Origin: an uncultured Lentisphaeraceae bacterium
Lineage (GTDB): Bacteria > Verrucomicrobiota > Lentisphaeria > Oligosphaerales > Oligosphaeraceae
DNA: 53,408 nt
Assembly (NCBI GenBank): GCA_964407145.1
Contig: CAYOUR010000002.1
Span: 1 to 53,408 of the forward strand
Reading direction: 5' to 3'
The stretch's first letter is position 1. Every line of letters starts with the position of its first letter. The notes under the pieces are model-generated. The model worked only from the letters and a program-made list of their open reading frames with translations. It ran no database searches and was not told the DNA's origin. Shown piece after piece: positions 14,842 through 44,866 of the stretch. Made by a program: the position numbers and the translations under genes.

Positions 14842-14847
14842 GGGTCG

Positions 14848-19513: not shown

Positions 19514-20539
19514 ATGTGTGTATGGACGGGTTACATCGGGCCGCGTGACGCGGCGTCAGAGGCATTCGGGATGCTTCAACGCATCGAAGGGCTGTGGAGC
19601 GGCTTTTACACCGGCCTGGCTGTGCTTGGCGAGGACGGCTGTCTCCGCCACGCCAAGACGGTGGGGTACTCCCGGCATTGGTTGGAGCAGTATCGACTGG
19701 ATGGCTATCCGGGTCATGTCGGTCTGGCGCACAGCCGGACGAACAGCGGCGGCGGCCGGGAATGGGCCCATCCTTTTGTCAGCGCCGAGGGGCGTCTTGC
19801 CCTGGTGGCGCAGGGTTCTCCAGGGGTTTTTGCCGGCAGCAAGCAGGTGCTGGAAGCGTGGGGCAATCGGCTTCTGGCGGAGGGCCGGCGTTTTACCAGC
19901 GCGGTTCCGAAGCGTACGGGCCGTTATCCCGTCTTGGCGGATGACACTGAAGTGCACAGCAGCGAAATTCATGAGGAGGCGACGGACAGCGAGTACCAGG
20001 TCTGCGGCGACCACCGCCAGGCCGTGACCCGGGTCGGTTCGGAGCTGTCTTCGGAGGCCATCTACGCCATGCTGTTTCAGGATTGCGCGGACACGCTATG
20101 GCTTGCCAATGTCAACCAGCGCTGCGTCATCGGCTTTGCCCCGGGAGAAGTTTTTCTGGCGACGTCCGTCCTGGCTTTTCCCGATCGGGTGGAGCGGTTT
20201 AAGGAGTTGCCGGGAAACACGGTTGCGGCCGTTCGGGTGGCGGGTGTGAGTCAGCAGCCGTTGTCCCCGCGTTATGAGGGTGTTGCGGCGCCGCCGGCAG
20301 GGCTGGAGGAGGCCTTTGTCGCGTATCTGGCCGGGCATCCCGGGGCCTTGCTGGGGCACATTGTCGACCAGGCGATCAAGCCGTGCTATCCGGGAAGCGG
20401 CCTGCGCCGCACCGGCACGGCTGGATACCGGATTCTGGAAGGCCTGGAGCGGCGTGGCCGGATTGATTTCGCATCTGCCGAGCATTGGAATCCCGACGGC
20501 AGCTGCGGTCTGCTGACCAGGCTGACTCTGCGTGGCTGA
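19514..20539 (+). CDS. Class II (Ntn-type) glutamine amidotransferase-like protein
   Basis: Starts MC(V)W with Cys2 as the putative N-terminal nucleophile, followed by HVGLAHSRTNSGG, which resembles GATase_2. The C-terminal half is unassigned. AAGGATGAA lies upstream. Confidence 0.55.
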   Translation: MCVWTGYIGPRDAASEAFGMLQRIEGLWSGFYTGLAVLGEDGCLRHAKTVGYSRHWLEQYRLDGYPGHVGLAHSRTNSGGGREWAHPFVSAEGRLALVAQGSPGVFAGSKQVLEAWGNRLLAEGRRFTSAVPKRTGRYPVLADDTEVHSSEIHEEATDSEYQVCGDHRQAVTRVGSELSSEAIYAMLFQDCADTLWLANVNQRCVIGFAPGEVFLATSVLAFPDRVERFKELPGNTVAAVRVAGVSQQPLSPRYEGVAAPPAGLEEAFVAYLAGHPGALLGHIVDQAIKPCYPGSGLRRTGTAGYRILEGLERRGRIDFASAEHWNPDGSCGLLTRLTLRG

Positions 20540-20590: not shown

Positions 20591-23500
20591 TCATTTGGCG
20601 TCGGGTTGCGGGTGGCAGAGGGCGCCGACCGGGCAGATGTCAATCAGTTCTTCGGCCAGGTTTTCGGTGGCCTGTTCCCAGGACTGCCCCCAGGGAGGGG
20701 CGACTTCCGTGTATCCGCCGCGGTGGTGGAAGCAGAGTCCGGCGCCGCGTTGCCGGGACAGGGCCACGCAGCGTCCGCAGAGCACGCATCGTTCCGGGAA
20801 GAAGGCGAGCCTGGCGGTCCGAATGACCGTGGTCGCGGGCGGGTTGGGTGACGACTTGCGGGCGCGGAACGTACGCATCAGGCGACGGAGCAGGCAGGGG
20901 TCTTTTTTGGCGCAGGCCGAGCAGCGCAGGTCATGCCGGTCCAGCAGCAGCTCAACGGCGCGGCGCCGGAACGCCGCCACCCGTGGCGTTTCATTTTCAT
21001 AGGAATGGCCGGCAACCGCCAGGGTGTCGCAGGCCGGCACGAACAGGTCAAGGGCCTGGTCATAGACCGAACAGACCAGGCAGCGGGCGTTTTCCTGACA
21101 GCCCGGCAGATGGCACAGGGTCGGGATGGCGACGCCATGGGCGGCGGCCAGCTGCAGGATGGTCTGGCCTTCCTGCCAGGGGACGGTTGCACTGTCCAGC
21201 CAGATGACCTTGTCCTGACCGGCCAGGGGCGGGACGGCCAGGACTTCGTCGGCGGTTTCCAGCGGTGCGGTGGCTTCTTCCGGCGTGTTGGCGGTTTCTG
21301 CCGGTGGCGGCGCCGTCGCGGGGCGGCCCGGGGAGACGGCGATGACGGCGTGCCGGGGGCAGAGGTCGCGGCAGACGCCGCAGCGGACGCAGAGGTCCTG
21401 GTTGATGCGGTGTTGTTCAAAAGGCGTGAAGGGGATGGCGGCGGCGGCGCAGTTCTGGGCGCATTTGGTGCAGCCGATGCAGTCTTCCGTGATTTCGAAC
21501 CGGCTCAATTCGCGGCATTTGCCGGTTGGGCAGGCCCCTTGGAGGTGGGCCTCGAACTCTTCGCGGAAATAGCGGATGGCGCTGAGGATCATGTTGGGCG
21601 CGGTTCGTCCCAGTCCGCAGAGGGCGCCCTGGCGGAGGTGGTGGGCCAGCGCCTGGATGTCCTCCAGGACGTGGGTGGGCTGGGGGGTGTCATGGCGTCG
21701 GGTCAGGCTGACGACCATGGCGTGGAGCCGCCGCAGTCCTTCCCGGCAGAGCGTGCATTTGCCGCAGGACTCGCCGCGGGTGAAGTCGAGAAAATAGGCC
21801 GCGATGTCGACCAGGCAGTCGCGTTCGTCGAGGACGACCAGGCCGCCGGAGCCCATCATGGCGCCATGGGCGGTGAGGGCTTCGTAGTCGACCGGCAAGT
21901 CGAAATGCCCGGCGGGCAGGCATCCTCCGGACGGCCCGCCGATGAGCACCGCCTTGAGTTGGTGGCCGTCCTCGGCGCCGCCGCCGATGTCTTCGACGAT
22001 GGTGCGGATGGATGTCCCCATCGGCACTTCGATCAGTCCGCCGCGCCGGACTTTTCCGGCCAGGGCGAAGGTCTTGGTTCCGGCGGAGGTGGCTGTTCCG
22101 AGGTTGGCGAAGGCCGCTCCGCCGTGGCGGACGATCCAGGGCACGCAGGCGAAGGTTTCGACATTGTTGATCAGGGTGGGCTGCCCGAACAGTCCGGCCG
22201 TGGTCGGGAAGGGCGGCCGTCGGCGTGGGATGCCGCGGCGTCCTTCCAGGGATTCCAGCAGGGCGGTTTCCTCGCCGCAGACGAAGGCTCCGGCGCCGCG
22301 GAAGAGGACGATGTCAAAGTCCGGATTCAGGCGGGCGAGCAGGCCCTGGTCGCGGCACCGGTCAATGGCCCTGGTCAGGGTGTCGATGGCCTGGGTGTAT
22401 TCTTCGCGGATGTAGATGACGGCGTCCTGGGCGCCGATGACGCGGGCGGCGATGAGGATGCCTTCCAGGACGCGGAACGGAAATGATTCCAGGAGCATGC
22501 GGTCCATGAAGGCTCCGGGGTCGCCCTCGTCGGCGTTGCAGATGACGACTTTGCCGGGGGCTGCGGTTTCCCGGGCAAGCCGCCATTTGCGGGCGGTGGG
22601 GAAGCCGGCGCCGCCGCGGCCGCGCAGCCGGGCCGTTTCCAGCTGCTGCAGGATGGCCTCTGACGACGAGTTCAGGGCCGTGTCCAGGGCGGCGAAGCCG
22701 CCGTGGCGGCAGTAGTCGTCCAGATCGAGCGGCGAGGATTCGCCGCCGCGCTCGGTGGCAATGGCCCGGCCGCCGCCGGTTCCGCCATCACCGCCTTTAC
22801 TGCCTTTGGCGTGGTCTACGGCGGCGGCTTTGGCGCAGTCCTGGTCTTGTTCGCGGTCGGTGGTTTGGCAGGGGCAGGAGGCCTGGCCGGCATAGAGTGC
22901 GTCGAGCATGGAAAGGGCGTGCCAGCGCAGGTTGGCCAGGGCGCCCTGCGGGGAGAAGTGTTCGTGAAGCAGTCGCGGGACCATGTCCGGCTGGACGTGG
23001 GGATAGTGGAAGACGTGTCCATTGCTGGCGATGGTGACTTCCGGCGCGCGGAAGGACTTGCCGGTGCAGCTGACTTCCCGGACGCGCACGGGCAGGCCGT
23101 GCCGGGCGACTTCGCGGCGCAGGTTCTGCCAGACGTTGCCGGCGCCGGCGGCCCGGCAGGACGAGCAGCGGCAGAGGCGCGCCTCCGCGCCGCCGTCGCT
23201 GTTGCCGGCGTGGCGTTGGGGGGTATTGCTGCGGGCGTCGTGAGCGGCTGTCTGCTCTTCGAGTATGGCTTGCCGGAAAGCGCTGATCACATCGGGGACG
23301 GTGGCCGGTTCGACCCAGCCGAAGATATGGTCGTCGATCTGCACGGCGACAGCCAGCATGCAGCAGCCCAGGCAGGCCACCTTGGTGACGGTGAACCGGC
23401 CCTGGTCGTCGGTGTCCTCTTCGCCGGTGATGGCCAGTTCGCGCCGGAAGGCGTCATAGACTTTTTCGGCGCCTTTGACGTGGCAGGCCGCGCCGACGCA

Positions 23501-23683
23501 GACGCGGACCAGGTGTTTTCCGGCCGGTTTGGTTCGGAAGCCGCTGTAGAAGGTCGCCGCCGAGGTGATGGCGGCCATGCCGACGCCGGTTTCCCGGGCC
23601 AGGGCGGTCAGTTCCGGCAGGGGCAGGTAGCCGAATTGTCGCTGGATGGCATTGAGCCGCGGCAGGAGGTCGTTGACGATCAT
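20591..23683 (-). CDS. Fused NADH dehydrogenase module: NuoE-like [2Fe-2S] + thioredoxin-like ferredoxin + NuoF (FMN/NADH) + 2x[4Fe-4S] + NuoG N-terminal FeS domain (1030 aa)
   Basis: RVCVGAACHVKGAEKV is NuoE-like. LRGRGGAGFPTARKW...ICNADEGDPGAFMDR is NuoF. CIGCTKCAQNC and CVRCGVCRDLCP are ferredoxin motifs. CHLPGCQENARCLVCSV...HDLRCSACAKK...CVLCGRCV is NuoG-N-like. The start is moved to MIVNDLL at 23683 and overlaps the upstream stop as ATGA. Confidence 0.85.
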   Translation of the reverse strand: MIVNDLLPRLNAIQRQFGYLPLPELTALARETGVGMAAITSAATFYSGFRTKPAGKHLVRVCVGAACHVKGAEKVYDAFRRELAITGEEDTDDQGRFTVTKVACLGCCMLAVAVQIDDHIFGWVEPATVPDVISAFRQAILEEQTAAHDARSNTPQRHAGNSDGGAEARLCRCSSCRAAGAGNVWQNLRREVARHGLPVRVREVSCTGKSFRAPEVTIASNGHVFHYPHVQPDMVPRLLHEHFSPQGALANLRWHALSMLDALYAGQASCPCQTTDREQDQDCAKAAAVDHAKGSKGGDGGTGGGRAIATERGGESSPLDLDDYCRHGGFAALDTALNSSSEAILQQLETARLRGRGGAGFPTARKWRLARETAAPGKVVICNADEGDPGAFMDRMLLESFPFRVLEGILIAARVIGAQDAVIYIREEYTQAIDTLTRAIDRCRDQGLLARLNPDFDIVLFRGAGAFVCGEETALLESLEGRRGIPRRRPPFPTTAGLFGQPTLINNVETFACVPWIVRHGGAAFANLGTATSAGTKTFALAGKVRRGGLIEVPMGTSIRTIVEDIGGGAEDGHQLKAVLIGGPSGGCLPAGHFDLPVDYEALTAHGAMMGSGGLVVLDERDCLVDIAAYFLDFTRGESCGKCTLCREGLRRLHAMVVSLTRRHDTPQPTHVLEDIQALAHHLRQGALCGLGRTAPNMILSAIRYFREEFEAHLQGACPTGKCRELSRFEITEDCIGCTKCAQNCAAAAIPFTPFEQHRINQDLCVRCGVCRDLCPRHAVIAVSPGRPATAPPPAETANTPEEATAPLETADEVLAVPPLAGQDKVIWLDSATVPWQEGQTILQLAAAHGVAIPTLCHLPGCQENARCLVCSVYDQALDLFVPACDTLAVAGHSYENETPRVAAFRRRAVELLLDRHDLRCSACAKKDPCLLRRLMRTFRARKSSPNPPATTVIRTARLAFFPERCVLCGRCVALSRQRGAGLCFHHRGGYTEVAPPWGQSWEQATENLAEELIDICPVGALCHPQPDAK

Positions 23684-25398
23684 GGCGCGGTCTCCAGGCA
23701 GAGCAGGCGGTTGTCCGTGGTGCGGATGATGATTCTGGCCTGGGCGAAGGCCGGGATGGCCACGACCTGGGCGCCCAGGTCGTGTTCGGCGGTCAGGATG
23801 AAACGGTCCGGGGACGGTTCGACGACCAGGAGCTTGCCGTCCAGGTTGACCGCGATGATTTTGCCGTCGACGACGACCGGTGAAGCATAGAAGCCGTTGT
23901 CGAAGTTTTCCTCGAAGACCTCCTCGCCGGTGGTGGCGTTGAGGGCGATGACGCTGCCGCCGCTGGTGAACAGGTACATGGTGTTTTGGGCGACGACCGG
24001 TGAAGCCACGTCCGGCATGGGCACATTGTGGTTCTGCCAGCGCGGGGTCGGGCTGAGGGGCTCGAAGGCCGCCGCGACGGCGCCGGAGTTGGCGAAGAAG
24101 AACAGTCCCAGGTCGGGGAAGGCTGAGGTCGCCACTTCGCCGCCCAGACATTCATTTTCCCAGAGCTGCCTGCCGGTATTGAGGTCGAAGGCCTCGGCCT
24201 TGGCGTTGCCGGCGGTGAAGAGGACGGGCGTGCCCTCGGGGGTGACCAGCAAAGACGGCGAGGACCAGGAGGTGGCGGAGGGTCGGGAGGTTTTCCAGAG
24301 CGTCTTGCCGGTGGTCGTGTCCAGGGCCAGGATTGTCTGCTGCTTTTCCGTGTCGTGCTGAAGTACGAGGGTGTTTCCGGCCAGGAGGGGCGAGGAGGCG
24401 TAGCCGTAGAGGATTTCGAAGTCCGGCAGCTGGCTGGTCCAGCGCCGGTTGCCCTGGTGGTCGAAGGCGACGATCTGGCCGGTGGCAAAGACGGCGAAGA
24501 CGCCGGTGTCATCAACGGCGGCGGTCGGCGCGGCGTAGCCGGTGTCGTCGGTGACGGCCGGGACTTTGGCGGCGCGGTCAACGGCGCCGGTCCAGAGCAG
24601 GCGGCCGTCGTCCAGGCTGAAGCAGTAAACGGCCCGGGACTGCCGGTCGCCGCCGGTCAGGAAAATGCGGTTTTCCCAGACGACCGGCGAGCTGTAGCCC
24701 GGCAGGGGGATTTTGGTCGACCAGGCGACCGTGAGGTCCCATTTGGCCGGCAGGCGGTTCCGGTTGGGGAGGACGGAGCCGCGGAAGCCAGGCCAGAATT
24801 CGGCGGCCCGTTCCAGGGCTTCGCCGAGGGGGAGGGTCGGGGTGGCGTCCGTGGCTGGCTGGTCCGGCCCGTTGCCGCGGGTTTGTTCATGGTCCGGGCT
24901 GGTTGCCGCCGCCGCCGTCAGTCGTCGTGGCCGGCTGGCGTCGCGGAGGGTGTTGGCGGCGAGGGCGATGACGACGACGGCCAGGCACGCGGCCAGTCCG
25001 TGGCGCAGGCAGGTGTTCTGGCGGAGGCGTTTCGCGGCCGGCGCGCCGGACGGTTTTTTCAGTTCATGGCTGCTGGTGACGGCCATGACCGCGGCGCCGG
25101 TGAGGAAGGCGATCAATCCGGCTGCGGCCAGGGCGCGGCCGAGGTCCATGCGGTCATGGTGGCGGAAGTAGGTCTGCCGGTACAGGAGGTCGAGTTCACG
25201 GATGACGTTGACGAAGTTTTGGTCGGCCGCCTTCTGGCCGATTTGGCTGCGCAGGTCCTGGAGGATGGCCTCGGTGTCCGGCAGCGCCTGGCGGGCCCGG
25301 TGGGTTTCGGCGGCCAGGAGGCAGCCCAGCAGAATCAGGAAAGCCAGGGCGACCAGGCAGAGATTCCGGCTGAGGTTGTACAGGAGGGAGCGATTCAT
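23680..25398 (-). CDS. PQQ-like (BamB-type) beta-propeller repeat protein, N-terminal membrane anchor
   Basis: TM segment LCLVALAFLILLGCLLAA, then FWPGFRGS...GYSSPVVWENRIFLTG and repeated propeller blades. The start is moved to MNRSLLY at 25398. Confidence 0.8.
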   Translation of the reverse strand: MNRSLLYNLSRNLCLVALAFLILLGCLLAAETHRARQALPDTEAILQDLRSQIGQKAADQNFVNVIRELDLLYRQTYFRHHDRMDLGRALAAAGLIAFLTGAAVMAVTSSHELKKPSGAPAAKRLRQNTCLRHGLAACLAVVVIALAANTLRDASRPRRLTAAAATSPDHEQTRGNGPDQPATDATPTLPLGEALERAAEFWPGFRGSVLPNRNRLPAKWDLTVAWSTKIPLPGYSSPVVWENRIFLTGGDRQSRAVYCFSLDDGRLLWTGAVDRAAKVPAVTDDTGYAAPTAAVDDTGVFAVFATGQIVAFDHQGNRRWTSQLPDFEILYGYASSPLLAGNTLVLQHDTEKQQTILALDTTTGKTLWKTSRPSATSWSSPSLLVTPEGTPVLFTAGNAKAEAFDLNTGRQLWENECLGGEVATSAFPDLGLFFFANSGAVAAAFEPLSPTPRWQNHNVPMPDVASPVVAQNTMYLFTSGGSVIALNATTGEEVFEENFDNGFYASPVVVDGKIIAVNLDGKLLVVEPSPDRFILTAEHDLGAQVVAIPAFAQARIIIRTTDNRLLCLETAP

Positions 25399-25444
25399 GG
25401 TCTGAGGCAGTCTGGCTTCGGGAGTGAGGTGGGCGGTGTCGCGG

Positions 25445-26068
25445 TCAGCGGATGAAGTTGGTCTGGGTGCGTTGTTCGAGGATGGGTCTGGGCACCTTGC
25501 CCTTGGCGTTGTCAATGCATTTCAGCAGCCAGGCCATGTTGCGGGCCAGGGTGCGCAGGGTCTGCTGGCCCTCCAGGTCGGCCTTGCCCTCTTCGGGCGT
25601 CAGGCCATGCATTGAATTCCAGTACTGCGAGGATACGACCGGCATGTTGGACATGGTGAAGTACTTGTTGAGCCGGTCGAAGGCGGCGCTGGCGCCGCCG
25701 CGGCGGCAGTTGACGACCGCGGCGGCCGGCTTGAAGGCGAAGGCGTAGTAGCGGGAGAAGAACATCCGGTCGAGGAAGGCGCACAGCGAGCCGTTGGGGC
25801 CGGCGAAGTACACGGGCGAGCCGACGATCAGGCCGTCCGCCCGGCACAGGCGTTCGGCGGCCTCGTTGACCAGGTCTCCGGTGAAGATGCAGCCGTTGCC
25901 GGTTTTGCGGCAGGCGCCGCAGGCGGTGCAGGCCTGGATCGGCTTGTCGCTGATATGCAGCAGATGCGTGTCGACGCCTTCCTGCTGCAGCTGGTCGGCG
26001 ACGGTCTGCAGGGCGGCGCTGGTGCAGCCATTGCGGCGGGGGCTGCCATTGATGAGCAGGACATTCAT
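25445..26068 (-). CDS. Iron-sulfur flavoprotein (Isf) / NADPH-dependent FMN reductase family
   Basis: MNVLLINGSPRRNGCT flavodoxin-like start. Compact CTACGACRKTGNGC (Cx2Cx2Cx6C) cluster motif. GGAGAAAA SD upstream. Confidence 0.8.
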   Translation of the reverse strand: MNVLLINGSPRRNGCTSAALQTVADQLQQEGVDTHLLHISDKPIQACTACGACRKTGNGCIFTGDLVNEAAERLCRADGLIVGSPVYFAGPNGSLCAFLDRMFFSRYYAFAFKPAAAVVNCRRGGASAAFDRLNKYFTMSNMPVVSSQYWNSMHGLTPEEGKADLEGQQTLRTLARNMAWLLKCIDNAKGKVPRPILEQRTQTNFIR

Positions 26069-26142
26069 GTGGTTTTCTCCAGGGGCAGATGGGTTGAGCG
26101 ATGACGGTGGGGGAGACTGGGAAGGGCGGGGCGTTGCCGGCG

Positions 26143-27438
26143 CTACGTGTTCGCCGGCGGGGCGGAGTTGCTGGCGGCTGCGGCGGCGGGCTGGCTCCGG
26201 CTCGGGCGCCGTTGCCGGGCCTGTTCGACCGGGCAGAGTGCGAAGCAGCGGCCGCAGACCAGGCAGAGGGTCTGGTCGATTTCATAGGTCCGCCGTTCCG
26301 GGTGGCGTCTGGCCAGGGCGATCAGTTCGGCCATGACGACGAGGGCCAGGACGGCGCCGGCGCCGGTCATGCCGAAGCGCGCGGTGCGTTCGGCCTGCCA
26401 GGCGGCCTGGCGCAGTTCCGTTTCCGGCCGTCCGGAGACGATGAAGGCGATGACGGCTTCGGAGTCGCTGAATTCGTCGAGTTCCCTGACCAGGGCCACG
26501 TCCGGGTTGGTGGTGGCGAGCAGTGGCGCCAGGGCGAAGCCGAGCCAGGCGCCGGCGGCGAGGGCCAGGGGCGTCATCGTCAGCAGCCGTTTGACGCGTT
26601 CCCGGCCGCGGGCGTGTTTTTCGGGCCAGTTGGGCGGTTCCGGTGCCAGGATGGCGCCATTGGGGCAGGTCTGTTCGCACAGTCGGCAGTTGACGCAGTC
26701 GCCATGGGTGATGGTGAGTCTTTTGACGCTGAACAGCGTGAGGAAGCGGAGCAGCACGCCATACGGGCAGAGATAGCGGCAGAAGGGCCTGGAGACAAAG
26801 ACGCCAATGGCGAGCAGGACCACGCCGAGATACACGGCCGGAGCCGCAAAGGTGAAGGTGAAGATGGGGAAGAACGGGTCCAGCTGACAGAGGTGAAAGG
26901 CGCCGCCGGCCGCGGCGGCCACAACGGACAGCAGGAGAATCAGCACGGGCAGGAACCGCAGCAGGCGGTCCAGGGCCATGGGCACGCGAACGGTTTTCAG
27001 GTGGACGAGTTCCTGGATGGCGCCGAGGGGGCAGCCGCCGATGCAGAACAGCCGTCCAAACAGCAGGGCGGTGGCGAGCGGCAGGACGACCAGGAGGGTG
27101 AGAGTGAGGGGCAAGGCGTTGTCGCCGGCCAGGGCGGCGGCCAGGTTGAGATGCAACCCGACCGGGCAGGGGCAGGGGCGCAGCCAGAAGCCGCTGACGA
27201 TCAGGGTGAGGCCGGAAAGCGCGAGCAGGGCGCGGCGGGATTTCAGGCGATGGGCGGCCAGCCCGGCCAGGAGCATCAGGCCGACCAGGATGGCGACCCT
27301 GACCCACCCGTCGTCAAACAACGACGGTTCCAGGTCCATGAGCGGTTCGGTGTAGTCCTGGAATTCGGGTTTGGGGAATCTGGCCTGGGCGGTGATTTGC
27401 GCCAGGGTGGGCAGGAGCCAGGCGGGCAGGACCATCAT
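26143..27438 (-). CDS. NapH/NosH/CcoG-like integral-membrane polyferredoxin
   Basis: Two CX3CP motifs (CIGGCPLG, CRYLCPYG) between TM helices. CVNCRLCEQTCP and CLVCGRCFALCP 4Fe-4S motifs. GGAGGTG SD upstream. Confidence 0.8.
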   Translation of the reverse strand: MMVLPAWLLPTLAQITAQARFPKPEFQDYTEPLMDLEPSLFDDGWVRVAILVGLMLLAGLAAHRLKSRRALLALSGLTLIVSGFWLRPCPCPVGLHLNLAAALAGDNALPLTLTLLVVLPLATALLFGRLFCIGGCPLGAIQELVHLKTVRVPMALDRLLRFLPVLILLLSVVAAAAGGAFHLCQLDPFFPIFTFTFAAPAVYLGVVLLAIGVFVSRPFCRYLCPYGVLLRFLTLFSVKRLTITHGDCVNCRLCEQTCPNGAILAPEPPNWPEKHARGRERVKRLLTMTPLALAAGAWLGFALAPLLATTNPDVALVRELDEFSDSEAVIAFIVSGRPETELRQAAWQAERTARFGMTGAGAVLALVVMAELIALARRHPERRTYEIDQTLCLVCGRCFALCPVEQARQRRPSRSQPAAAAASNSAPPANT

Positions 27439-27980
27439 GGGGCCACCTCCCCGGGGATGTTTTTGAAGATGTATGGCTGATCAGCCGGTACTTTGACGAA
27501 GGCCTGTGCCGGGCAGGTCAGGGCGATCTGGCATTGGTTGCAGTTGAGGCAGAGGCCATGCCGGACCTGCAGAAACAGCGAGCCGTTGCCGAAGGAGGCG
27601 CAGCCTTTGACGCATTTTCCGCAGCCGATGCAGAGTTCCTCGTCGATTTTGTATTCGAAGTACGGGTCTTCGACGAAGGTGCGGACGATGGCGCCGGTTG
27701 GGCAGCGCTGGTTTTCGGCGGCGGTATCGAAGTCAACGCGGTCGTCATGGTAGTAGCCGCTGCAGAAGTCGCAGTAGCCGCAGCTGGCATATTGATGGAC
27801 GCATTTGACCGCGGAGGGTTTTTTGACGCAGGCGGTGGCGCAGTTGCCGCACTGGATGCATTTTTCCGGGTCGATCTGCCAGTAGGTGCGGGGTGGTGGG
27901 GGGCGTTTGCGCAGGAGGTTGAGGACCGGCAGGGCCAGCGCCGTTCCCAGCAGATATTGAAAGAAGTGTCGTCGGTTCAT
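27435..27980 (-). CDS. Tat-signal poly-[4Fe-4S] ferredoxin (NapG-like periplasmic FeS protein)
   Basis: MNRRHFFQYLLGTALALPV is a twin-arginine signal. CIQCGNCATAC, CIGCGKCVKGC and CLNCNQCQIALTCP motifs. ATGA overlaps occur at both ends (27435-38 and 27977-80). Confidence 0.8.
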   Translation of the reverse strand: MNRRHFFQYLLGTALALPVLNLLRKRPPPPRTYWQIDPEKCIQCGNCATACVKKPSAVKCVHQYASCGYCDFCSGYYHDDRVDFDTAAENQRCPTGAIVRTFVEDPYFEYKIDEELCIGCGKCVKGCASFGNGSLFLQVRHGLCLNCNQCQIALTCPAQAFVKVPADQPYIFKNIPGEVAP

Positions 27981-28192
27981 CGGGTGTTCTCCCGGAAGGA
28001 ACGGGCGGTCGGGTGTCCGCAGGCGGCGAGGTATTGGCAGCCGCGGCAGACGCCTGATCCGCGGCAGCGGTCGTGGCCTGGGGCCGTCGCGGTCTGGCTG
28101 GCCGGCCGGCGGCTGGAACGGAAGACGAGCCGGGCCAGGACGGCGAACAGGGCCAGGCGCATGGCCAGGGCGATGAATTGGCGTCGTGTCAT
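27977..28192 (-). CDS. Small Tat-signal cysteine-rich protein (71 aa)
   Basis: MTRRQFIALAMRLALFAVLA is twin-arginine-like, followed by CRGSGVCRGCQYLAAC (Cx5Cx2Cx6C). The stop overlaps the next start as ATGA. There is no SD and the ORF is short, so confidence is moderate. Confidence 0.45.
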   Translation of the reverse strand: MTRRQFIALAMRLALFAVLARLVFRSSRRPASQTATAPGHDRCRGSGVCRGCQYLAACGHPTARSFRENTR

Positions 28193-28272
28193 GGTTGTTG
28201 TGGGGCTGGGGCTGCGGTGGCGATTGCGGGCGACAGGTGGTGACCGGCGTCGTCGACCGGTGCCGGTGGGGG

Positions 28273-28938
28273 TCAGTCTCCGGGGTCCGGCACGGTCCAG
28301 ACGCGTTGCCGCTGCCGGTCGATAATATAGGCGGCGTCGGGGACATGGATGAGCCCGTAGTCGAATTCGGACGGGGGCAGGTCGTCGGTGATGACGCTGA
28401 CTTCATTGCCGGCCGGATCGAACAGGCGCGCCTGGCGGGTTCCTTTCTCCATGGTGACGAAGCGTCCATGGCGGAGGGCGGCGAAGCGGACGGGGTTGCA
28501 GCAGCCGCGGAAGGGCTCCTGCGGTTGCCAGGCGGCAAGGAAGCGGCCGGTCCGCGGGTCAAGCTGTTCCAGACGTTTGCGGCCGACGTTGGCGACCCAG
28601 AGGTTGCCCTCGGGGGACAGATCCAGGGGGAAGGCGTCCCCGGGGACGATGAAGCGGTCCTGGCCCGAGGATTCCCAGGCGGTTTCCCCGGTGGCGACCG
28701 AGGTGGCCTTGACCAGGAAACGTTCGCGGTCGACGCTGAAGGCGAGGCCGTGGAGGTGCAGCGGCTGCGGTTCCGGAAGGGCGGCCAGCTCGCCATTGCC
28801 GGCGGCGGCGGCATTGGCCAGGGCCGGGTCCTGCTCCGGCGGCGCTGGCGGGCTGAGACGGAACATCATGATGGCCGAGCCCAGCAGGATGAGCAGGCCA
28901 AGCACCAGCAGCGCGAATGGGACGGGAGAGAGTCTCAT
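28273..28938 (-). CDS. Membrane-anchored NHL-repeat-like protein (221 aa)
   Basis: N-terminal TM FALLVLGLLILLGSAIMMF. NLWVANVGRKRLEQLDPRTGRF is an NHL-type blade. The start overlaps the upstream stop as ATGA. Confidence 0.6.
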   Translation of the reverse strand: MRLSPVPFALLVLGLLILLGSAIMMFRLSPPAPPEQDPALANAAAAGNGELAALPEPQPLHLHGLAFSVDRERFLVKATSVATGETAWESSGQDRFIVPGDAFPLDLSPEGNLWVANVGRKRLEQLDPRTGRFLAAWQPQEPFRGCCNPVRFAALRHGRFVTMEKGTRQARLFDPAGNEVSVITDDLPPSEFDYGLIHVPDAAYIIDRQRQRVWTVPDPGD

Positions 28939-30374
28939 GGTTGCGTCCTTTTCAGTTCCAGGCAGGCCATGGAGGTGGAGTCGCGCACGATCATCAGCCC
29001 GTCCGCCAGGGCGATTGGTCCCCAGGAATCGACGCCGGGGAGGACTCGGGCGGCGGCGAGGCGGGTGAAGGTGTGGTTGTCGTAGGCCAGGACGGACAGG
29101 TGGCCGTCGTCGTCCAATATCCAGAATTTGTCATCGGCCAGGAGGAACGGTCCGAGGCCGAAGCGCAGGTCGCGTCCTGACGCGGCGACGATGTCAGGCA
29201 GGTGTTCGGGGTCGGCGGCGACGAGTTGGGCGCGGCGGGCGCCGGCGTCCTTGGGCTGGATGGTGAAGAGGAGGCCATGGTGGAAGATCGGGGTTTGCTG
29301 TTCGGCGGCGGGCGCCAGGGTGGGTTTCCATTTGCCCAGCAGAGCTGTCTGCCAGCCGGCCGGGCCGCGTTCGACCTGCAGCAGGGCGGAGCCCATGCCG
29401 TAGCCGGCGGTCAGGAACAGCCGGTTGTGAGCGACCTGGACCGGCGAGGGCGCCCAGACGGGCGGCAGCCATTCGCGCGAGCTCCAGAGCAGCTCGCCGT
29501 CGGGCGACACGCCGATGATGCCGCCGAGGCCGGCGTACACATAGTGTTTTTCGCCGGCCAGGGTGGCGATGATGACGGAGCTGTGGGACATTTTCAGGCC
29601 GGGGGCATTGGGCAAACTCCAGATTGGTTCGCCGGTTTTGAGGTCGAGGGCGAGGAGCAGGGTGTTGGCGCCGGCGGGCGCGAGGATGACCCGGTCGCCG
29701 TCGATGAGCGGGCATTGACCGGCGTACCATTGCGGGGGTTCGGCGCCGTCCTGTCCGACCAGGTCACGCGTCCAGAGCAGGTCGCCGGTGATGGCCTGGG
29801 CAGCCATGACATGGGCCAGGGGCCCCAGGGTGACGACGGTGTCGTCGGCGACGGCCGGCACGGTCCGGGACTTGCCGTGGTTGCGGCGGATTTCATTGCG
29901 GTAGGACCGTCGCCACAGTTCGCGGCCGTCCTCCAGGGCAAAGCAGCGCAGGGCGTCTTCCTCCTCCTGCTCCAGGTAATCCAGGATGTAGACGCGCTGG
30001 CGGGCGATGACGGGTGCGGCATAGCCTTCGCCGAGTGGGATGCGCCAGCGGACCGGCGGGCCGTCCGCCGGCCAGTCGTGGTTCAGCGGCGGGGCGGTGG
30101 CGGCGGCGGCGATGTTGTCGCGGTTTGGGCCGCGGAAGCCTGGCCAGGGATAGTCCTGGTCGCCGGAGTCAGGGTCGTCCGGCGAAAAGCGTTGGAAGGA
30201 TTCGCCGATGATGACGGTTTTCGCCGCGGCAGTGCGGCTGTCGGCGCCGTCCATGCCCGGCAGGGCGATGGTGATGTCCCGCTGCGGGGTGACGGTGGCG
30301 AAGACGACGATGCCGGCGGCGGCGGCGGCCAGGCAGAGGCAGGTGAACAAGGTGATGATCAGGCGGTCAGGCAT
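28935..30374 (-). CDS. PQQ-like (BamB-type) beta-propeller repeat protein, N-terminal membrane anchor
   Basis: TM LIITLFTCLCLAAAAAGIVVF, then YPWPGFRGPNRDN...GEGYAAPVIARQRVYILD. The track start at 30401 is TTG; ATG at 30374 is chosen. Confidence 0.8.
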   Translation of the reverse strand: MPDRLIITLFTCLCLAAAAAGIVVFATVTPQRDITIALPGMDGADSRTAAAKTVIIGESFQRFSPDDPDSGDQDYPWPGFRGPNRDNIAAAATAPPLNHDWPADGPPVRWRIPLGEGYAAPVIARQRVYILDYLEQEEEDALRCFALEDGRELWRRSYRNEIRRNHGKSRTVPAVADDTVVTLGPLAHVMAAQAITGDLLWTRDLVGQDGAEPPQWYAGQCPLIDGDRVILAPAGANTLLLALDLKTGEPIWSLPNAPGLKMSHSSVIIATLAGEKHYVYAGLGGIIGVSPDGELLWSSREWLPPVWAPSPVQVAHNRLFLTAGYGMGSALLQVERGPAGWQTALLGKWKPTLAPAAEQQTPIFHHGLLFTIQPKDAGARRAQLVAADPEHLPDIVAASGRDLRFGLGPFLLADDKFWILDDDGHLSVLAYDNHTFTRLAAARVLPGVDSWGPIALADGLMIVRDSTSMACLELKRTQP

Positions 30375-30434
30375 GGGGGATGTGCTGTCGATGTCGGTCA
30401 ATCCGGTTGGGTTTCATTGGCTGGGGTGGTTCAG

Positions 30435-32237
30435 TTATGCGTGGCCGTGGTCTGGAGGCGGTTTGGTTCCGGTCTGATCGGGCGCCGGCGCCGGCGCCGG
30501 CAGGTGCTGGTATTGGCCGGCGGCCAGGAAGGCCCTGGTAATGAAGATTCGCGGGTAGAGCTGTTCGGAATACCACAGCTGGGAGAAATATAATCCGACC
30601 GGTTCCGGGGGCAAGTCATCGAGGTTTTCCGGGGCGGTGCGGAGGAAGTCGAGGCCGCGCTGGATGGCCTGGCGGGTGTCGGCGCCGGTGTCGTGGCCGG
30701 TCGCCAGGGCGGCGATGGCCCTGGCCGTGAAGATGAATCGCGGCGTGGCTCCGGGGCGGTCATCGGCGCCCCAGGCGCCGGAGGGCTGCTGGGCAGCCAG
30801 CAGATAGTCGCGGGCCTTGGCGCACCATGGCGTCGCCAGGCCGCAGAGGTTTTCCAGGACGACGGCGGTGCCGTAGACCGGGGCCAGGCCGTCAGGGGCG
30901 AGCTGGTCGCCGAACCAGAGCGGCAGGAAGGCGCCGTCGGCCCGCTGGTTGCGGGACAGGAAGTCGAGGATGCGTTTTTGGCAGCGTTCGGCCGCGTGTC
31001 GCCAATCGGGCTGGAGGGCATGGCGCCAGAGGTCAAGGGCGTGGTAGGCGTGGGCGGAGAGGTCGGGGCAGCTGCGGTCAAAGGGAAGCTTCCCCCAGCC
31101 GCGGCAGAAGGTGGGGATACCCCCGTCGCGGTTTTGCAGGTTGATGAGCCAGGCACAGCCGTCGGCGATTTCTGGTGTCAGGCGGTCGGGCTGGAGGGCG
31201 TGGAGGGCGACCAGGGCCGCGGCCGTGTCATCGGCGTCCGGGACCGCGCCGGACTGATGTGTCCAGGCCCAGCCGCCGGGTGCGGCGCCGGTGAATGGAT
31301 GGACGGCGGCGAACTGCCGTTGCCGGATGATGTCGGCGAGGTCTTCGCGTTCGGCGGCGGTCATGGCCGGCGCTGCCGCCTTGGCGGCCAGGGCGGTGCA
31401 CCATTGTGCCAGGCTGGTGTCGATTGGCCAGGCGCCGTCAGGCCGGACCGTGGTGGTGAGGAACCGCTCCGCGGCCAGGGCGACCGGATGGGCGCGAAGG
31501 TTGGCGGCCGACAGGCAGATGAGGCAGAAGGCGGTGAGCGGCGCGGCCTCCAGAAAGCCCCCGGAGGGCGGTTGCAGTCTGGTGAGCAGGCGGAGCACGG
31601 CGGGGATCAGACGGCGCCGGAGGCGGGCAGGCAGGCCTGGCCGGGCATGAGTGGCCTGGGCGACGCCGATGGCGATCAGGGCGGGGAGGGCGTAGCTGAC
31701 CACGCGCAGATTGAGGAAACGGAAACAGGCCCGCGGCAGCAGCGCCAGTTCAAACGGCAGCTGGGGCATCCGGCTCCAGGGGTGGTCGTCGTCGTGAAGC
31801 AGGTCTGAGGCTGTGCATAGTGCCAGGATCGGCACGGAGAAGGTCAGATCCTGGCCATATTTTTCCAGGATGGCAGCGCGGATGGCGGCGGGCGAGAAGC
31901 CGCCAAGTCTGGCGGTCAGGTACGCCCGGGCGCGGGTTGCGGCCGGGGAATCGGCGTCGGCATGGGCCAGGGCGGCGTAGCCCAGCAGGCTGGCGGTGAG
32001 ATTGGGCGGGGATTCCGGGGTGTCGCCCCAGGCGCCGTCGGCCAGTTGGGTGTCGGCCAGCCATTGGCAGGCGGCGGCAATGGTCTTGGCGTGCCGGTCC
32101 GGGGCGGCCAGGGCCAGGCTGATGGCGGCCGTCGCCGTGGAGACGGCTGAAGGTGCGAGGTGGCCTGACCAGTCCCCTGACGGGAGGCGACGGCGCAGCA
32201 GTTCGGTGCTCAGGCGTTGATAATCGTGGCAGGTCAT
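30435..32237 (-). CDS. Squalene-hopene-cyclase-like class II terpene cyclase (600 aa)
   Basis: DADDTAAALVAL matches the DxDDTA catalytic motif. QW-type repeats present (QLADGAWG, QNRDGGIP, QQPSGAWG). The C-terminal GLYFSQLWYSEQLYPRIF resembles the SHC C-terminus. Confidence 0.8.
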   Translation of the reverse strand: MTCHDYQRLSTELLRRRLPSGDWSGHLAPSAVSTATAAISLALAAPDRHAKTIAAACQWLADTQLADGAWGDTPESPPNLTASLLGYAALAHADADSPAATRARAYLTARLGGFSPAAIRAAILEKYGQDLTFSVPILALCTASDLLHDDDHPWSRMPQLPFELALLPRACFRFLNLRVVSYALPALIAIGVAQATHARPGLPARLRRRLIPAVLRLLTRLQPPSGGFLEAAPLTAFCLICLSAANLRAHPVALAAERFLTTTVRPDGAWPIDTSLAQWCTALAAKAAAPAMTAAEREDLADIIRQRQFAAVHPFTGAAPGGWAWTHQSGAVPDADDTAAALVALHALQPDRLTPEIADGCAWLINLQNRDGGIPTFCRGWGKLPFDRSCPDLSAHAYHALDLWRHALQPDWRHAAERCQKRILDFLSRNQRADGAFLPLWFGDQLAPDGLAPVYGTAVVLENLCGLATPWCAKARDYLLAAQQPSGAWGADDRPGATPRFIFTARAIAALATGHDTGADTRQAIQRGLDFLRTAPENLDDLPPEPVGLYFSQLWYSEQLYPRIFITRAFLAAGQYQHLPAPAPAPDQTGTKPPPDHGHA

Positions 32238-33163
32238 GAGGTCAATCCCATGGCCACCAGGCCGTAGGCGGTATATTCCAGGTCGGGCGTGTCGTCGCCG
32301 GGGAAGGCGCCGAAACCGCCGGCGTCGGTGATGGTCTGACGGAGAAAAGGCTTGAGGGAAAACGGCGCGGGTCGCCCGCAGCAGTGCAGGGCCAGGCTGG
32401 CCGTGGCGGTCGAGAGCAGGTCCGGGCCGGGCGCCATTGGCGTGGCCGGGAAGCCGCCGGTCTGAGTCTGGAGGGTGGCGAGGCGTTCCAGGTCGGGGCG
32501 GAGCGCGTCGGGCCTGGGACGGCCGTCATTGAGCAGCATGAGTGCGGCGGCGGTGGCGTTGACGGCCGGAGTTGAGTCGCCGGGCAGGTTGGCGAACAGG
32601 CCGTCGGTCAGGCGGTACTGCTCCAGGCGTTGGGGCGTGAAGTCCAGGCCCAGGTCGCCGGCCAGGGACCAGCGCAGGAGCTGCGAGTAGGGCGACCATG
32701 GGTCGTGGTGGGGGAAGCGTGCGGCGCCAACGCCGGCGTCGGCGCCGGCGTCGGCATTCAGGTCATCCCAGGCTTCGCGCAGGTCTGGCCGGAGCGGTGG
32801 CGTCAGCCGGCGGCGCCGGATGATGGCGGCGAAGCGGGCGATGGCCGGCTGGCGGAGATACAGAAGCAGGGCGTGTGAGCGGGTAAGGCAGGCGAGGTGG
32901 ACCAGGTCCAGGGAGTTCGGGGCAAAGCCGCGCAGGTAGGTTTCCTGTGCCGGCAGGTCGAGGCGGAGGCCGGCGGCAGCGGCGATCAGCAGCCCGAACA
33001 TGGTGTAGTAGAGGTCGGCATTGCCGTGCCGGTCGGCGAATCCGCCGGCGGGCGCCAGCCGCGAGCGCACGAAGTCGAGCAGGCGCGCCGCCGTGTCCGG
33101 GTGGCATTTTTGCCAGCCGGCGCGGATGGTGCGGAACATGATGATGGAAAGCGGAGTCGGCAT
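32234..33163 (-). CDS. Prenyltransferase/squalene oxidase repeat protein (single alpha-alpha toroid, 309 aa)
   Basis: Repeated xxGGF motifs (APAGGFADRHG, QTGGFPATP, DAGGFGAFPG) resemble protein-prenyltransferase beta / terpene cyclase repeats. ATGA overlap with the cyclase gene. Confidence 0.7.
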   Translation of the reverse strand: MPTPLSIIMFRTIRAGWQKCHPDTAARLLDFVRSRLAPAGGFADRHGNADLYYTMFGLLIAAAAGLRLDLPAQETYLRGFAPNSLDLVHLACLTRSHALLLYLRQPAIARFAAIIRRRRLTPPLRPDLREAWDDLNADAGADAGVGAARFPHHDPWSPYSQLLRWSLAGDLGLDFTPQRLEQYRLTDGLFANLPGDSTPAVNATAAALMLLNDGRPRPDALRPDLERLATLQTQTGGFPATPMAPGPDLLSTATASLALHCCGRPAPFSLKPFLRQTITDAGGFGAFPGDDTPDLEYTAYGLVAMGLTS

Positions 33164-33195
33164 GTGTGGGGGCTATTTCGGTCCGGCGCCGCCGG

Positions 33196-34728: not shown

Positions 34729-35917
34729 AGGCGCCAAATCCGCAGAAGTAGTATTTTTTGGCCAGTCGGTAGGCCCAGGATTTTTCCGGGATGACGCCTT
34801 CGGGGTCATGATGTCCCGGCAGGATGGAAGCCCGGTCGAGTTCGGCGAGGGCATCGCGGTTGGAGGAGTCGATGGGGTGGTGTCGGCGCAGGAATGCGGC
34901 CAGTGCGGCGGGGTCTTCGAGGAGGATGCAGCCGCGGGACCGTTCGGCGGTGAAGGCCCGCAGCGCCGGCAGGAAGTCGTCCTGCTGCAGGATGGCCTGG
35001 AGGTTGTCGGCGGCTGGGTTGAGACGGCTGGAGCAGAACTGGAGCGGCGGGCAGAATTCGACGGCGCCGGACGGCGCGATGTGGTGCGAGAGTCCGGTTG
35101 CGCCCGGGCAGAGGGCGTTGCCCTGGTGGTCCCAGTAGGCGTCGATGATGAGCAGTTTGGCGGTGCGGCGTTGGTCAACCACGAATTGCCGCAGCTGGCG
35201 AATCTGTTCGCGGCTGAGGGCGTTTTCGGGTTCCGGGTGGGCGCCGGCTGGCCGGTAGATATAGTACCAGAGGTAGTGCACGCCCTTGCCGGTGAGCAGG
35301 TCGAGATAGTCCTTTGACACCAGCTCGGGGAAGTTCTGGCGGGTGATGCTGGCGGCCACGCCGGTGAACAGCTTTGCCTGGACCGCGGTCTCAAGGGCCT
35401 GGAGGGCGCGTTGGAAGACGTCGTCGCGGCCGCGTCGCCGGGCTGATTCATCCTGCAGTCCTTCGATGCTGATCAGAGGCGTCACGTTGCCGAGTCTGGC
35501 CAGCCGGCCGGCAAAGTCCGGGGTGAGGGCCAGGCCGTTGGTGAACAGCTGGAAGTAGCTTTTCGGGTGGGCGGCGAAGAAGTCGAGCAAGTCGTGGTGC
35601 AGGAGCGGTTCGCCGCCCAGGATGCCGAAGAAGAAGGACCGGTGCTGATTGGCCTGTTTGACCAGGGCGTCGAGCTGTGTTCGCGAAAGCTGCTGCGAAG
35701 GACTGGTCTGCTGCACCCAGCAGCCGCGGCACTGCAGCTGACACTGATTGGTGATGGACAGCATCAGGAAGGCCGGAAAGAACGGCTCGCCATTCCGGAG
35801 GCGCTTTTCAAAGGCTCGGACGGCGCCGGCGCCGCGCCAGGCGAAGTTGATGGCGAGGGAGCGCAGCACCGGCCAGGAGCAGCCGCGGGCAATGCGGCAC
35901 AGGGCGACGGGATTCAT
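34721..35917 (-). CDS. Radical SAM protein (398 aa) with short Cys-containing C-terminal (twitch/SPASM-like) region
   Basis: LMLSITNQCQLQCRGCW carries CX3CX2C. GILGGEPLL. C-terminal ALCPGATGLSHHIAPSGAVEFCPPLQFC. The start is moved to MNPVALC at 35917, an ATGA overlap with the ferredoxin gene. Confidence 0.85.
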   Translation of the reverse strand: MNPVALCRIARGCSWPVLRSLAINFAWRGAGAVRAFEKRLRNGEPFFPAFLMLSITNQCQLQCRGCWVQQTSPSQQLSRTQLDALVKQANQHRSFFFGILGGEPLLHHDLLDFFAAHPKSYFQLFTNGLALTPDFAGRLARLGNVTPLISIEGLQDESARRRGRDDVFQRALQALETAVQAKLFTGVAASITRQNFPELVSKDYLDLLTGKGVHYLWYYIYRPAGAHPEPENALSREQIRQLRQFVVDQRRTAKLLIIDAYWDHQGNALCPGATGLSHHIAPSGAVEFCPPLQFCSSRLNPAADNLQAILQQDDFLPALRAFTAERSRGCILLEDPAALAAFLRRHHPIDSSNRDALAELDRASILPGHHDPEGVIPEKSWAYRLAKKYYFCGFGAYG

Positions 35918-36609: not shown

Positions 36610-36750
36610 GGGCAGGTGAATCCTTTCTCTGCGGAACACGTGGGTGATACGGTAAACGCTGCCTTGTCGGAATGTCGGGTGGTATCGCTGTCCCGTGGCC
36701 CGCGCCGCCGCTGGCCCGGTATTGCCCTTGCGGATGCCGCCAGAGCCGGT

Positions 36751-44846: not shown

Positions 44847-44866
44847 CGGTCGCTCCTTGCTTCGGA

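Follow-up and report, generated by a model that had tools for sequence, protein, structure and literature searches.

The NapGH, NosGH and MauMN systems share a common design: adjacent genes encode a membrane protein, in which two CX3CP motifs are followed by 4Fe-4S motifs at the C-terminus, and a four-cluster ferredoxin that is exported by the twin-arginine translocation (Tat) pathway. The NapH protein of E. coli has four transmembrane (TM) helices and its N-terminus in the cytoplasm. In NosR/NirI and PceC/RdhC, a periplasmic N-terminus is combined with CX3CP motifs and a ferredoxin tail in the cytoplasm, and these proteins presumably deliver electrons to an enzyme that faces the periplasm. 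The polyferredoxin CcoG/RdxA/FixG resembles NapH and reduces Cu2+, a small substrate outside respiration. The question of what NapH/NosR-type polyferredoxins do is an old one; the function of NapGH is disputed, with a role as quinol dehydrogenase among the proposals (PMC6195509). Here, we characterize a related system encoded in a 53,408 bp stretch of DNA from an uncultured Lentisphaeraceae bacterium (contig CAYOUR010000002.1, positions 1–53,408; this entire stretch is referred to as the window). At its centre lies a gene for a membrane polyferredoxin, polyFd. The conduit design is familiar; the donor module, the partners and the gene fusions are not. We propose, with a probability of roughly 0.55, that polyFd belongs to one complex without heme, in which cytoplasmic NADH (and perhaps ferredoxin) is connected via polyFd and an exported ferredoxin to a set of periplasmic propeller proteins.

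Two other groups of enzymes bear on this proposal. The methylamine and quinohemoprotein amine dehydrogenases combine a periplasmic propeller with a small, Cys-rich subunit; NapGH-like ferredoxins (MauMN) are encoded nearby, and the qhp cluster has a radical SAM/SPASM enzyme and an ABC exporter in its neighbourhood. Members of the electron-bifurcating BfuABC family (HydABC, NfnABC, WorABCSL) are assembled from NuoE-like, NuoF-like (with an extra 2x[4Fe-4S] segment) and HydA-N-like parts. Bfu cores are modular and join different catalytic modules, in one case via a polyferredoxin wire (PMC11829005, PMC12318220): in WorABCSL, the Bfu core is plugged into the four-cluster ferredoxin wire WorS (PMC12318220).

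The conserved gene unit around polyFd

A sequence-only reading of the window had singled out four minus-strand genes—encoding an Isf-like flavoprotein (Isf), polyFd, a Tat ferredoxin (TatFd) and a mini-protein—as a NapGH-style conduit lacking any terminal reductase. All four genes are present with the boundaries that had been assigned to them, as are their Cys motifs, their twin-arginine (RR) motifs and two ATGA start/stop overlaps, read in the DNA as ...cccgATGAaccgacga and ...gccccATGAtggtc; these overlaps join the TatFd gene to the mini-protein gene on one side and to the polyFd gene on the other. The comparison with NapGH, NosGH and MauMN also holds, in that a membrane CX3CP polyferredoxin is paired with a Tat-exported, four-cluster ferredoxin. 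Likewise, domain annotation of the whole 53-kb window detected no classical terminal reductase (NosZ, Nap, cbb3 or other). Since the Cys residues of polyFd and TatFd are kept across orthologues (see below), the pattern formed by the focal genes is far beyond chance.

The unit that is conserved in other genomes is larger than these four genes and does not include Isf. Synteny was counted by tblastn with the window proteins on 84 loci from several phyla, Lentisphaerota, Kiritimatiellota, Planctomycetota and Bacteroidales among the lineages represented, with a separate denominator for each gene. The conserved order is propB – p221 – four-Cys mini-protein – TatFd – polyFd – propC – NuoEFG, where propB, p221 and propC are propeller proteins and NuoEFG is a fusion of NADH dehydrogenase-like parts. 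TatFd is retained, adjoining polyFd, in 76/76 loci; p221 is found in 69/72, propB in 61/63, propC in 67/68 and NuoEFG in 56/60. An additional propeller gene, propA, is found upstream of this core in many loci. Propellers had been noted as the only periplasm-facing candidates nearby, and in this survey they are the conserved partners, present in nearly every locus. The neighbourhoods of four annotated related loci agree with this order (propeller, unknown protein, small open reading frame (ORF), ferredoxin, polyferredoxin, propeller, NuoEF). No member of the napA, nosZ or mauAB families occurs among the called genes of these four loci, or in the window. An Isf gene occupies the same position in only one of 75 other loci, namely L005, the 80%-identical relative; judged by its synteny, Isf is a lineage-specific insertion between polyFd and propC, outside the conserved unit.

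Homologues of polyFd occur in Lentisphaerota, Kiritimatiellota, Planctomycetota, Hydrogenedentota and Bacteroidales. With one genome considered per GTDB species, relatives are present in at least 587 species-level genomes, and an exhaustive search of 1.84 billion representative proteins with a hidden Markov model (E≤1e-30) yielded 596 clusters at 50% identity. The conduit family is thus large and widespread, and it is evolutionarily old. The carriers are abundant anaerobic glycan degraders of the rumen, digesters, landfill and sediments, and the window sequence itself occurs in bioreactor, digester, landfill, wastewater and compost runs. A full-text literature search gave no description of this gene cluster, the components of which carry no more specific annotation than '4Fe-4S binding protein', 'PQQ-binding-like propeller' or 'hypothetical'.

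The conduit and its cytoplasmic module

The polyFd protein contains two CX3CP motifs (C132–P137 and C220–P225) and two CX2CX2CX3CP (4Fe-4S) motifs (C248–P259 and C392–P403), and all 15 of its Cys residues are invariant among 83 aligned orthologues. Hydropathy and the positive-inside rule predict seven TM segments, a periplasmic N-terminus and a cytoplasmic C-terminus. In this predicted topology, both CX3CP and both ferredoxin motifs would lie in K/R-rich, cytoplasmic loops, with a two-helix hairpin returning the second ferredoxin motif to the cytoplasmic side. The K/R-free loops, which are predicted to be periplasmic, hold three further invariant Cys residues: C89 and C91 (within GCxCPxG), and C184. 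In most orthologues, a Sec-type signal peptide is followed directly by an invariant RFPxPEF motif, on the K/R-free side. The orthologue alignment contains no invariant His, and no CXXCH motif was found in any of the 14 proteins encoded by the gene run to which polyFd belongs; together, these two results point to a heme-free electron path.

The sequence-only reading had named orthology to CcoG/RdxA or NosH as an alternative for polyFd. Comparison with curated models argues otherwise. The protein scores 49.3 bits against the NapH/MauN model TIGR02163 (cut-off 213), 43.3 bits against the NapH model NF007013 (cut-off 234), and 47 bits against the NosR model NF046105 (cut-off 1000), where the match covers the membrane/ferredoxin part only; the CcoG model is absent from the 25 best of its 45 NCBIfam matches. 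A search of the PDB with a polyFd profile returned generic ferredoxin domains only, and no NapH/NosR-type structure. By these comparisons, polyFd belongs to the NapH/NosR superfamily, yet is not an orthologue of NapH, NosR or CcoG.

The architecture of polyFd differs from that of its relatives in several respects. Its seven hydrophobic segments, and an N-terminus that the signal peptides place outside, are at odds with the NapH topology. The secreted RFPxPEF N-terminus, the three invariant Cys residues predicted on the outer face and the two-helix insertion between the ferredoxin motifs likewise set it apart from the membrane proteins of NapGH, NosGH and MauMN, as do its partners: propellers and a NuoEF-type module, rather than NapA, NosZ or methylamine dehydrogenase (MADH). 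In its predicted periplasmic N-terminus, its CX3CP motifs and its cytoplasmic ferredoxin tail, polyFd resembles NosR/NirI and PceC/RdhC. Unlike NosR/NirI, it has no FMN-binding N-terminal domain (no Pfam match to FMN_bind was obtained), with ~20 residues preceding TM1. CcoG/RdxA/FixG is an earlier example of a conduit that has no classical reductase, but differs in domain layout; further, the window contains no cbb3 oxidase (cco) genes.

Each of the 17 Cys residues of TatFd is kept in 76–80 of 80 orthologues. They fall into four motif groups, and would be enough for four [4Fe-4S] clusters. The two Arg residues of the twin-arginine motif (NRRHFF) are kept in 73/80 and 77/80 orthologues. Like polyFd, TatFd is not orthologous to its counterparts in NapGH, NosGH and MauMN; no match to the NapG/MauM models was found at E≤0.01. 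Its closest solved relative is WorS (9mqx_E; E=3.6e-5), i.e., the four-cluster ferredoxin of WorABCSL.

The mini-protein consists of an R-R-x-F N-terminus, one TM helix, a C-X5-C-X2-C-X5-C motif and then CGHPTARSF, with ~35 residues beyond the helix and no conserved Trp. A comparable ORF, with a TM helix and four Cys residues, lies between p221 and TatFd in 67/84 loci. The Cys spacing is 2-5-5 in a group that includes Bacteroidales-labelled loci, and 5-2-5 or 6-2-5 in loci of the Planctomycetes–Verrucomicrobia–Chlamydiae (PVC) type. The Tat character that the earlier reading gave to the mini-protein is not conserved: the motif is present here, but RR is found in only 33 of 67 orthologues, with KR or RK in 19 and a single basic residue in the other 15. 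The combination of periplasmic propeller, small Cys-rich protein, NapGH-like ferredoxins and, in the neighbourhood, radical SAM/SPASM and ABC transport genes is reminiscent of the methylamine and quinohemoprotein amine dehydrogenases. A reading of the mini-protein as a quinoprotein of the tryptophan tryptophylquinone or cysteine tryptophylquinone (TTQ/CTQ) type, or as a ribosomally synthesized and post-translationally modified peptide (RiPP), was considered and rejected, given the lack of a conserved Trp, the TM helix, and a radical SAM gene that accompanies only 15/56 cores. The locus also differs from those dehydrogenases in having no heme subunit.

The quinone pool and the cytoplasm had been considered as ends of the conduit. 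This framing overlooked NuoEFG, encoded two genes downstream and a plausible point of NADH input. A single protein combines Pfam domains PF01257, PF01512, PF10589, Fer4_21, NADH-G_4Fe-4S_3 and Fer4_Nqo3, corresponding to (i) a NuoE part with a 2Fe-2S centre, (ii) a NuoF part with FMN and 4Fe-4S centres, (iii) an extra C-terminal 2x[4Fe-4S] segment, and (iv) a HydA-N/HoxU-like end. No catalytic domain, signal peptide or convincing TM segment was detected in NuoEFG. Its best PDB match is NfnB (9n5u_B; 8e-170), followed by HoxF, HydB and WorB, compared with ~1e-92 for the NuoF of complex I; in bit scores, Bfu-type B subunits reach 466–570, versus ~310 for NuoF.

The domain makeup of NuoEFG is that of BfuABC: a C1-type NuoE, a B1-type NuoF, the added ferredoxin of the B part and a HydA-N-like A part (PMC11829005). 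It differs from described members of the family in that the three parts are fused, within 1030 aa, and in that no hydrogenase, formate dehydrogenase (FDH), GltD or WOR module accompanies them; the presumed third partner is a membrane protein with a periplasmic chain, which is undescribed for the family. In L003, a Pirellulales locus, the HydA-N-like part stands alone as its own protein and carries a GltD-like domain, an arrangement like that of NfnABC, and three other loci (L090, L098 and L100) contain a full-length, 52%-identical match to this protein. On these domain matches and its position in the unit, NuoEFG is most likely the electron donor of polyFd, or its acceptor should the flow be reversed. 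Given this plausible NADH input, the system need not draw on the quinone pool. It also adds to the kinds of module that could join a Bfu core.

Periplasmic propellers, the proposed electron path and its alternatives

All of the propellers have a signal peptide or TM anchors, as judged by hydropathy. They had been described as 'cofactor-less-looking', a label that undersells them: propB is 45–64% identical across phyla (versus 36–49% for polyFd) and carries an invariant set of Cys, His and polar loop residues, and propellers are found fused to the conduit. The AlphaFold2 (AF2) model of propB (predicted local distance difference test score, pLDDT, 89) is an 8-bladed propeller. Its Foldseek matches include BamB, tetrathionate hydrolase and quinoproteins, at 13–17% identity; no catalytic homologue is among them. 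Invariant positions are R173, N174, H175, S178, R179, Q229, C230, S272, H273, S275, E367, Q368, Q369, D458, R473 and D474. A further four (C153, T180, M271 and C480) are nearly invariant, and T370 and R413 are invariant or close to it. Blade after blade, most of these residues fall in the loop just before strand A, and would thus lie on one face, round the central channel. Such an arrangement is more in keeping with an active site or cofactor site than with a scaffold, and makes propB the best candidate for a catalytic or substrate-binding subunit. The strongly conserved propellers may be enzymes rather than scaffolds. The possibility of a NosZ-like copper propeller was examined separately and rejected for propB, which lacks a His-rich pattern; its conserved His residues are limited to H175, H273 and, less strictly, H197.

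Against the quinoprotein dehydrogenase model TIGR03075 (cut-off 480 bits), propB scores 18 and propC 44 bits; against the BamB equivalog TIGR03300 (cut-off 285), the two score 38 and 94 bits, respectively, indicating that only the fold is held in common. The third PQQ_2 propeller, propA, also falls below the cut-offs of both kinds of model. The p221 protein has ~4 blades in its AF2 model (pLDDT 89), its best Foldseek matches are NHL domains, and it contains the invariant motifs GCCNP and T-x-EKG.

In some genomes, parts of the conduit and the propellers are encoded as a single protein. Fusions of polyFd and propC, ~970–1140 aa in length, are P0352, P0358, P0372, P0379 and P0426; residues 510–1037 of P0352 align with residues 46–568 of propC (E=1e-65). 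Proteins of roughly 1000 aa make up ~10 of the best 150 polyFd relatives, and in 5/5 of those checked a PQQ_2 propeller follows the polyferredoxin. In addition, there is one fused product of p221 and TatFd (P0341). The polyFd–propC fusions and the p221–TatFd product argue for a physical partnership between conduit and propellers.

In the complex that we propose, cytoplasmic NuoEFG, with its Bfu-type architecture, would oxidise NADH and possibly exchange electrons with ferredoxin as well, and would supply the [4Fe-4S]/CX3CP clusters that the 7-TM polyFd has on its cytoplasmic side. The membrane would be crossed through polyFd, with C89/C91/C184 on the outer face as the candidate exit. From here, electrons would be taken up by the Tat-exported, four-cluster TatFd, with the mini-protein perhaps serving as an anchor or an extra centre. 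Their destination would be an assembly in the periplasm that consists of propB, p221 and propC, the last of these tethered to the membrane. An envelope or periplasmic substrate may then be reduced in the conserved pocket of propB. In the window, Isf would be an inserted accessory: perhaps a second ferredoxin-linked input, or a protective enzyme.

Several points weigh against this proposal. To our knowledge, there is no route by which an Fe-S cluster could be built on the outer face of a Sec-inserted membrane protein, and C89/C91/C184 may therefore be a thiol relay or purely structural. No cofactor motif is recognisable in propB, whose nearest folds are those of BamB scaffolds and of a hydrolase that uses no cofactor, and whose presumptive pocket is drawn from secondary structure and conservation. 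The p221–TatFd fusion is a single gene call, which may be a frameshift or assembly artefact, and RR is absent from half of the mini-protein orthologues. The RNA evidence (below) consists of assembled contigs at low, flat depth, for which DNA carry-over is possible. Finally, the passage of electrons by NapH-type proteins is itself an open question (PMC6195509).

The same components could work in reverse: one or more propellers would oxidise a periplasmic substrate, electrons would move inwards via TatFd and polyFd, and the Bfu-type module would reduce NAD+ and/or ferredoxin. Bfu enzymes are reversible, with the ferredoxin wire of WorABCSL feeding electrons into the Bfu core (PMC12318220), and periplasmic dehydrogenases are among the members of the PQQ_2 superfamily, to which the propellers belong. 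Nevertheless, we think inward flow improbable: propB, propC and propA all score far below the quinoprotein dehydrogenase models, no sign of PQQ synthesis was seen in the window or the loci, and few periplasmic donors are reducing enough for NAD+ reduction through [4Fe-4S] clusters. We are slightly more doubtful that polyFd is a true NapGH-type quinol dehydrogenase, which would oxidise quinol and feed TatFd while NuoEFG is merely a separate, soluble enzyme of the operon. The low score of polyFd against the NapH/MauN model, its seven predicted TM segments (versus four in NapH) and its different N-terminus all speak against this, and the position of NuoEFG beside propC in 56/60 loci, together with the ATGA overlap between the two genes, is hard to explain for an unrelated enzyme; NuoEFG also has no catalytic partner domain of its own. 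On the other side stand the CX3CP motifs and Fer4_5 domains that polyFd has in common with NapH/MauN, and the fact that such a role has been proposed for NapGH (PMC6195509). A narrower alternative concerns Isf, which the sequence-only reading had included in the conduit. The Isf gene does lie directly after polyFd on the same strand, and one RNA contig spans the junction; Isf, rather than NuoEFG, might be the physiological donor of polyFd in this organism, and the four focal genes a self-contained unit. With Isf missing from this position in 74/75 other loci and flanked by spacers where neighbouring genes are joined by overlaps, and with NuoEFG present and intact here, this is very improbable.

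A different kind of function is also conceivable, namely a reductive machine for maintenance or biogenesis of the envelope. Following DsbD- or CcoG-like logic, such a machine would carry out thiol/disulfide chemistry, or the maturation of a cofactor or lipid, with the propellers acting as BamB-like scaffolds and an ABC/FtsX transporter moving the product. Many periplasmic Cys residues are indeed invariant (the polyFd triad, the CC of p221, C153 and C230 of propB, C258 of propC and the four of the mini-protein). Further, of 48 full loci, 32–35 have a fourth propeller, an ABC ATPase and an FtsX-type permease after the core, and 23 have a glycosyltransferase there; a terpenoid cassette is joined to the core in three arrangements. 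NapGH, too, has been suggested to act in maturation (PMC6195509). However, a four-cluster Tat ferredoxin with a Bfu-type input is an elaborate apparatus for routine thiol reduction, many loci lack the transporter and the terpenoid cassette, and the window lacks the transporter. We therefore regard this explanation as unlikely too.

Returning to outward flow from NADH, a far-reaching extension of our proposal is that the system is the first membrane-spanning member of the Bfu family. Electrons from NADH would be split between cytoplasmic ferredoxin (uphill) and a periplasmic or envelope acceptor of higher potential (downhill), the latter reached along an Fe-S/Cys path in polyFd that is independent of heme and quinone; propB and p221 would represent a new class of propeller enzyme, the substrate of which, in many lineages, may be a polycyclic terpenoid made by the cassette. 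This extension is speculative, and we would not expect it to hold in full. If true, it would give fermenters a new outlet for electrons beyond the cytoplasm, together with a gain of reduced ferredoxin, and would reveal the actual task of NapH-type proteins. In any case, the explicit cytoplasmic donor module, and the fixed and sometimes fused periplasmic partners, make transmembrane electron transfer by the polyFd fold directly testable.

Gene run, accessory modules and transcription

The genes described above form part of a continuous, minus-strand run of 14 genes, extending from position 38070 down to 20591 (Table 1; Pfam and NCBIfam annotation of ORFs). The order is propA, Fer4 protein, radical SAM/SPASM-like enzyme, DUF116::polyprenyl synthase, 309-aa toroid protein, class-II cyclase-like protein, propB, p221, mini-protein, TatFd, polyFd, Isf, propC and NuoEFG. 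The run lies in a genome of high GC content (~66%). The stop codon of propC overlaps the ATG of NuoEFG as ATGA, a junction that was read in the sequence; ORF coordinates give 4-bp overlaps between propB and p221, and between the toroid and cyclase-like genes. The limits of the TatFd gene follow from its true start, the ATG at 27980. Isf is separated from its neighbours by 74 bp and 46 bp, and overlaps neither.

Table 1. Genes and cassette of the minus-strand run, with positions in the window
Feature	Positions	Strand	Description and basis
propA	36751–38070	-	Secreted PQQ_2 propeller, first gene of run; Pfam/NCBIfam
Terpenoid cassette, whole	30435–36639	-	Five genes
Fer4 protein (terpenoid cassette)	35914–36639	-	
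Radical SAM/SPASM-like enzyme (terpenoid cassette)	about 34721–35950	-	
DUF116::polyprenyl diphosphate synthase (terpenoid cassette)	33196 to about 34710	-	
309-aa toroid protein (terpenoid cassette)	32234–33163	-	
Class-II terpene-cyclase-like protein (terpenoid cassette)	30435–32237	-	
propB	28935–30401	-	TM-anchored 8-bladed PQQ_2/BamB-fold propeller; Pfam, AF2, Foldseek
p221	28273–28938	-	TM-anchored partial NHL propeller; AF2 and Foldseek
Mini-protein	27977–28192	-	71 aa; begins MTRRQFI; no Pfam or NCBIfam match
TatFd	27435–27980	-	Tat ferredoxin; 181 aa; begins MNRRHFF; 17 Cys
polyFd	26143–27438	-	Membrane polyferredoxin; 431 aa; two Fer4_5 matches (Pfam)
Isf	25445–26068	-	Isf-like flavoprotein; 207 aa; Pfam FMN_red E=7e-32
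propC	23680–25398	-	Three N-terminal TM helices and PQQ_2 propeller; Pfam, hydropathy
NuoEFG	20591–23683	-	NuoE-NuoF-2x[4Fe-4S]-HydA N-terminal/HoxU-like fusion; 1030 aa; Pfam, NCBIfam

The hallmark of Isf proteins is a flavodoxin-like FMN_red fold with a compact, N-terminal CX2CX2CX5-7C motif; Cys residues of the protein encoded here are spaced as C47-X2-C50-X2-C53-X6-C60. No Isf-specific curated model or solved Isf structure is among the matches of the 207-aa protein.

The terpenoid cassette is a conserved five-gene unit by itself. In a metagenome scan, which gave at least 585 related stretches (loci L085–L164 among them), it is often free-standing, and its three arrangements with the core were recorded in the same scan. 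Among genome loci, it lies ≤10 kb upstream of the core in 19/56. The class-II cyclase-like protein has an invariant DxDDT motif in all orthologues that were aligned with the window (19/19), and the prenyl synthase keeps its two DDxxD motifs. A DUF116–polyprenyl synthetase fusion has received a passing remark in Pirellula staleyi (PMC5898192). The adjacent cassette lends some support to the earlier suggestion of a lipid or small molecule as electron acceptor.

Where the transporter module is present (L001, L002, L004 and about 30 other loci), it lies downstream of NuoEFG and comprises the fourth propeller (~365–375 aa), the ABC ATPase and the FtsX-type permease (900–1090 aa). The glycosyltransferase found after the core belongs to family GT4. 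None of these four genes is present in the 53-kb window, which has gained Isf instead.

Metatranscriptome contigs cover the whole gene run at low, even depth. Individual contigs span polyFd, TatFd, mini-protein and p221 (27080–28343), and Isf and polyFd (25778–26654), which is consistent with a polycistronic transcript. Two runs labelled 'TRANSCRIPTOMIC' (X2 and X15) contain contigs of up to 68 kb, including one of 10.1 kb across 22599–32711; contigs of such length indicate that these runs probably contain DNA, and they were not used as evidence of transcription. A scan for promoters and terminators returned counts at shuffle level, and Rfam and tRNA scans of the window found only a tRNA-Leu at 42851. 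Within the NuoF part of NuoEFG, 201–213 nt (22285–22499) are skipped in contigs of metatranscriptome runs X16 and X19, and depth in the bin 22191–22787 is 3–5 times that of neighbouring bins. This anomaly may reflect cross-mapping of conserved sequence that resembles nuoF, or a strain variant that carries an in-frame deletion.

Outside the gene run, positions 488–2992 (minus strand) encode two subunits of a 2-oxoacid:ferredoxin oxidoreductase (POR_N/PFOR_II and TPP_C/POR). These genes show that anaerobic metabolism in this organism is linked to ferredoxin, a point that bears on a Bfu-type module. A 1330-aa ORF at 3528–7520 (minus strand) has coding-like GC3 and zero Pfam or NCBIfam matches. 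Directly after the run, at 19514–20539 (plus strand), lies a 341-aa ORF with a weak match to GlmS (46 versus 381 bits); the match is to the N-terminal glutamine amidotransferase part of GlmS only, and the ORF may encode a divergent or truncated amidotransferase. Finally, GC content dips to 0.515 at 14001–16000 and to 0.58 at 44001–46000, versus ~0.65 elsewhere in the window.

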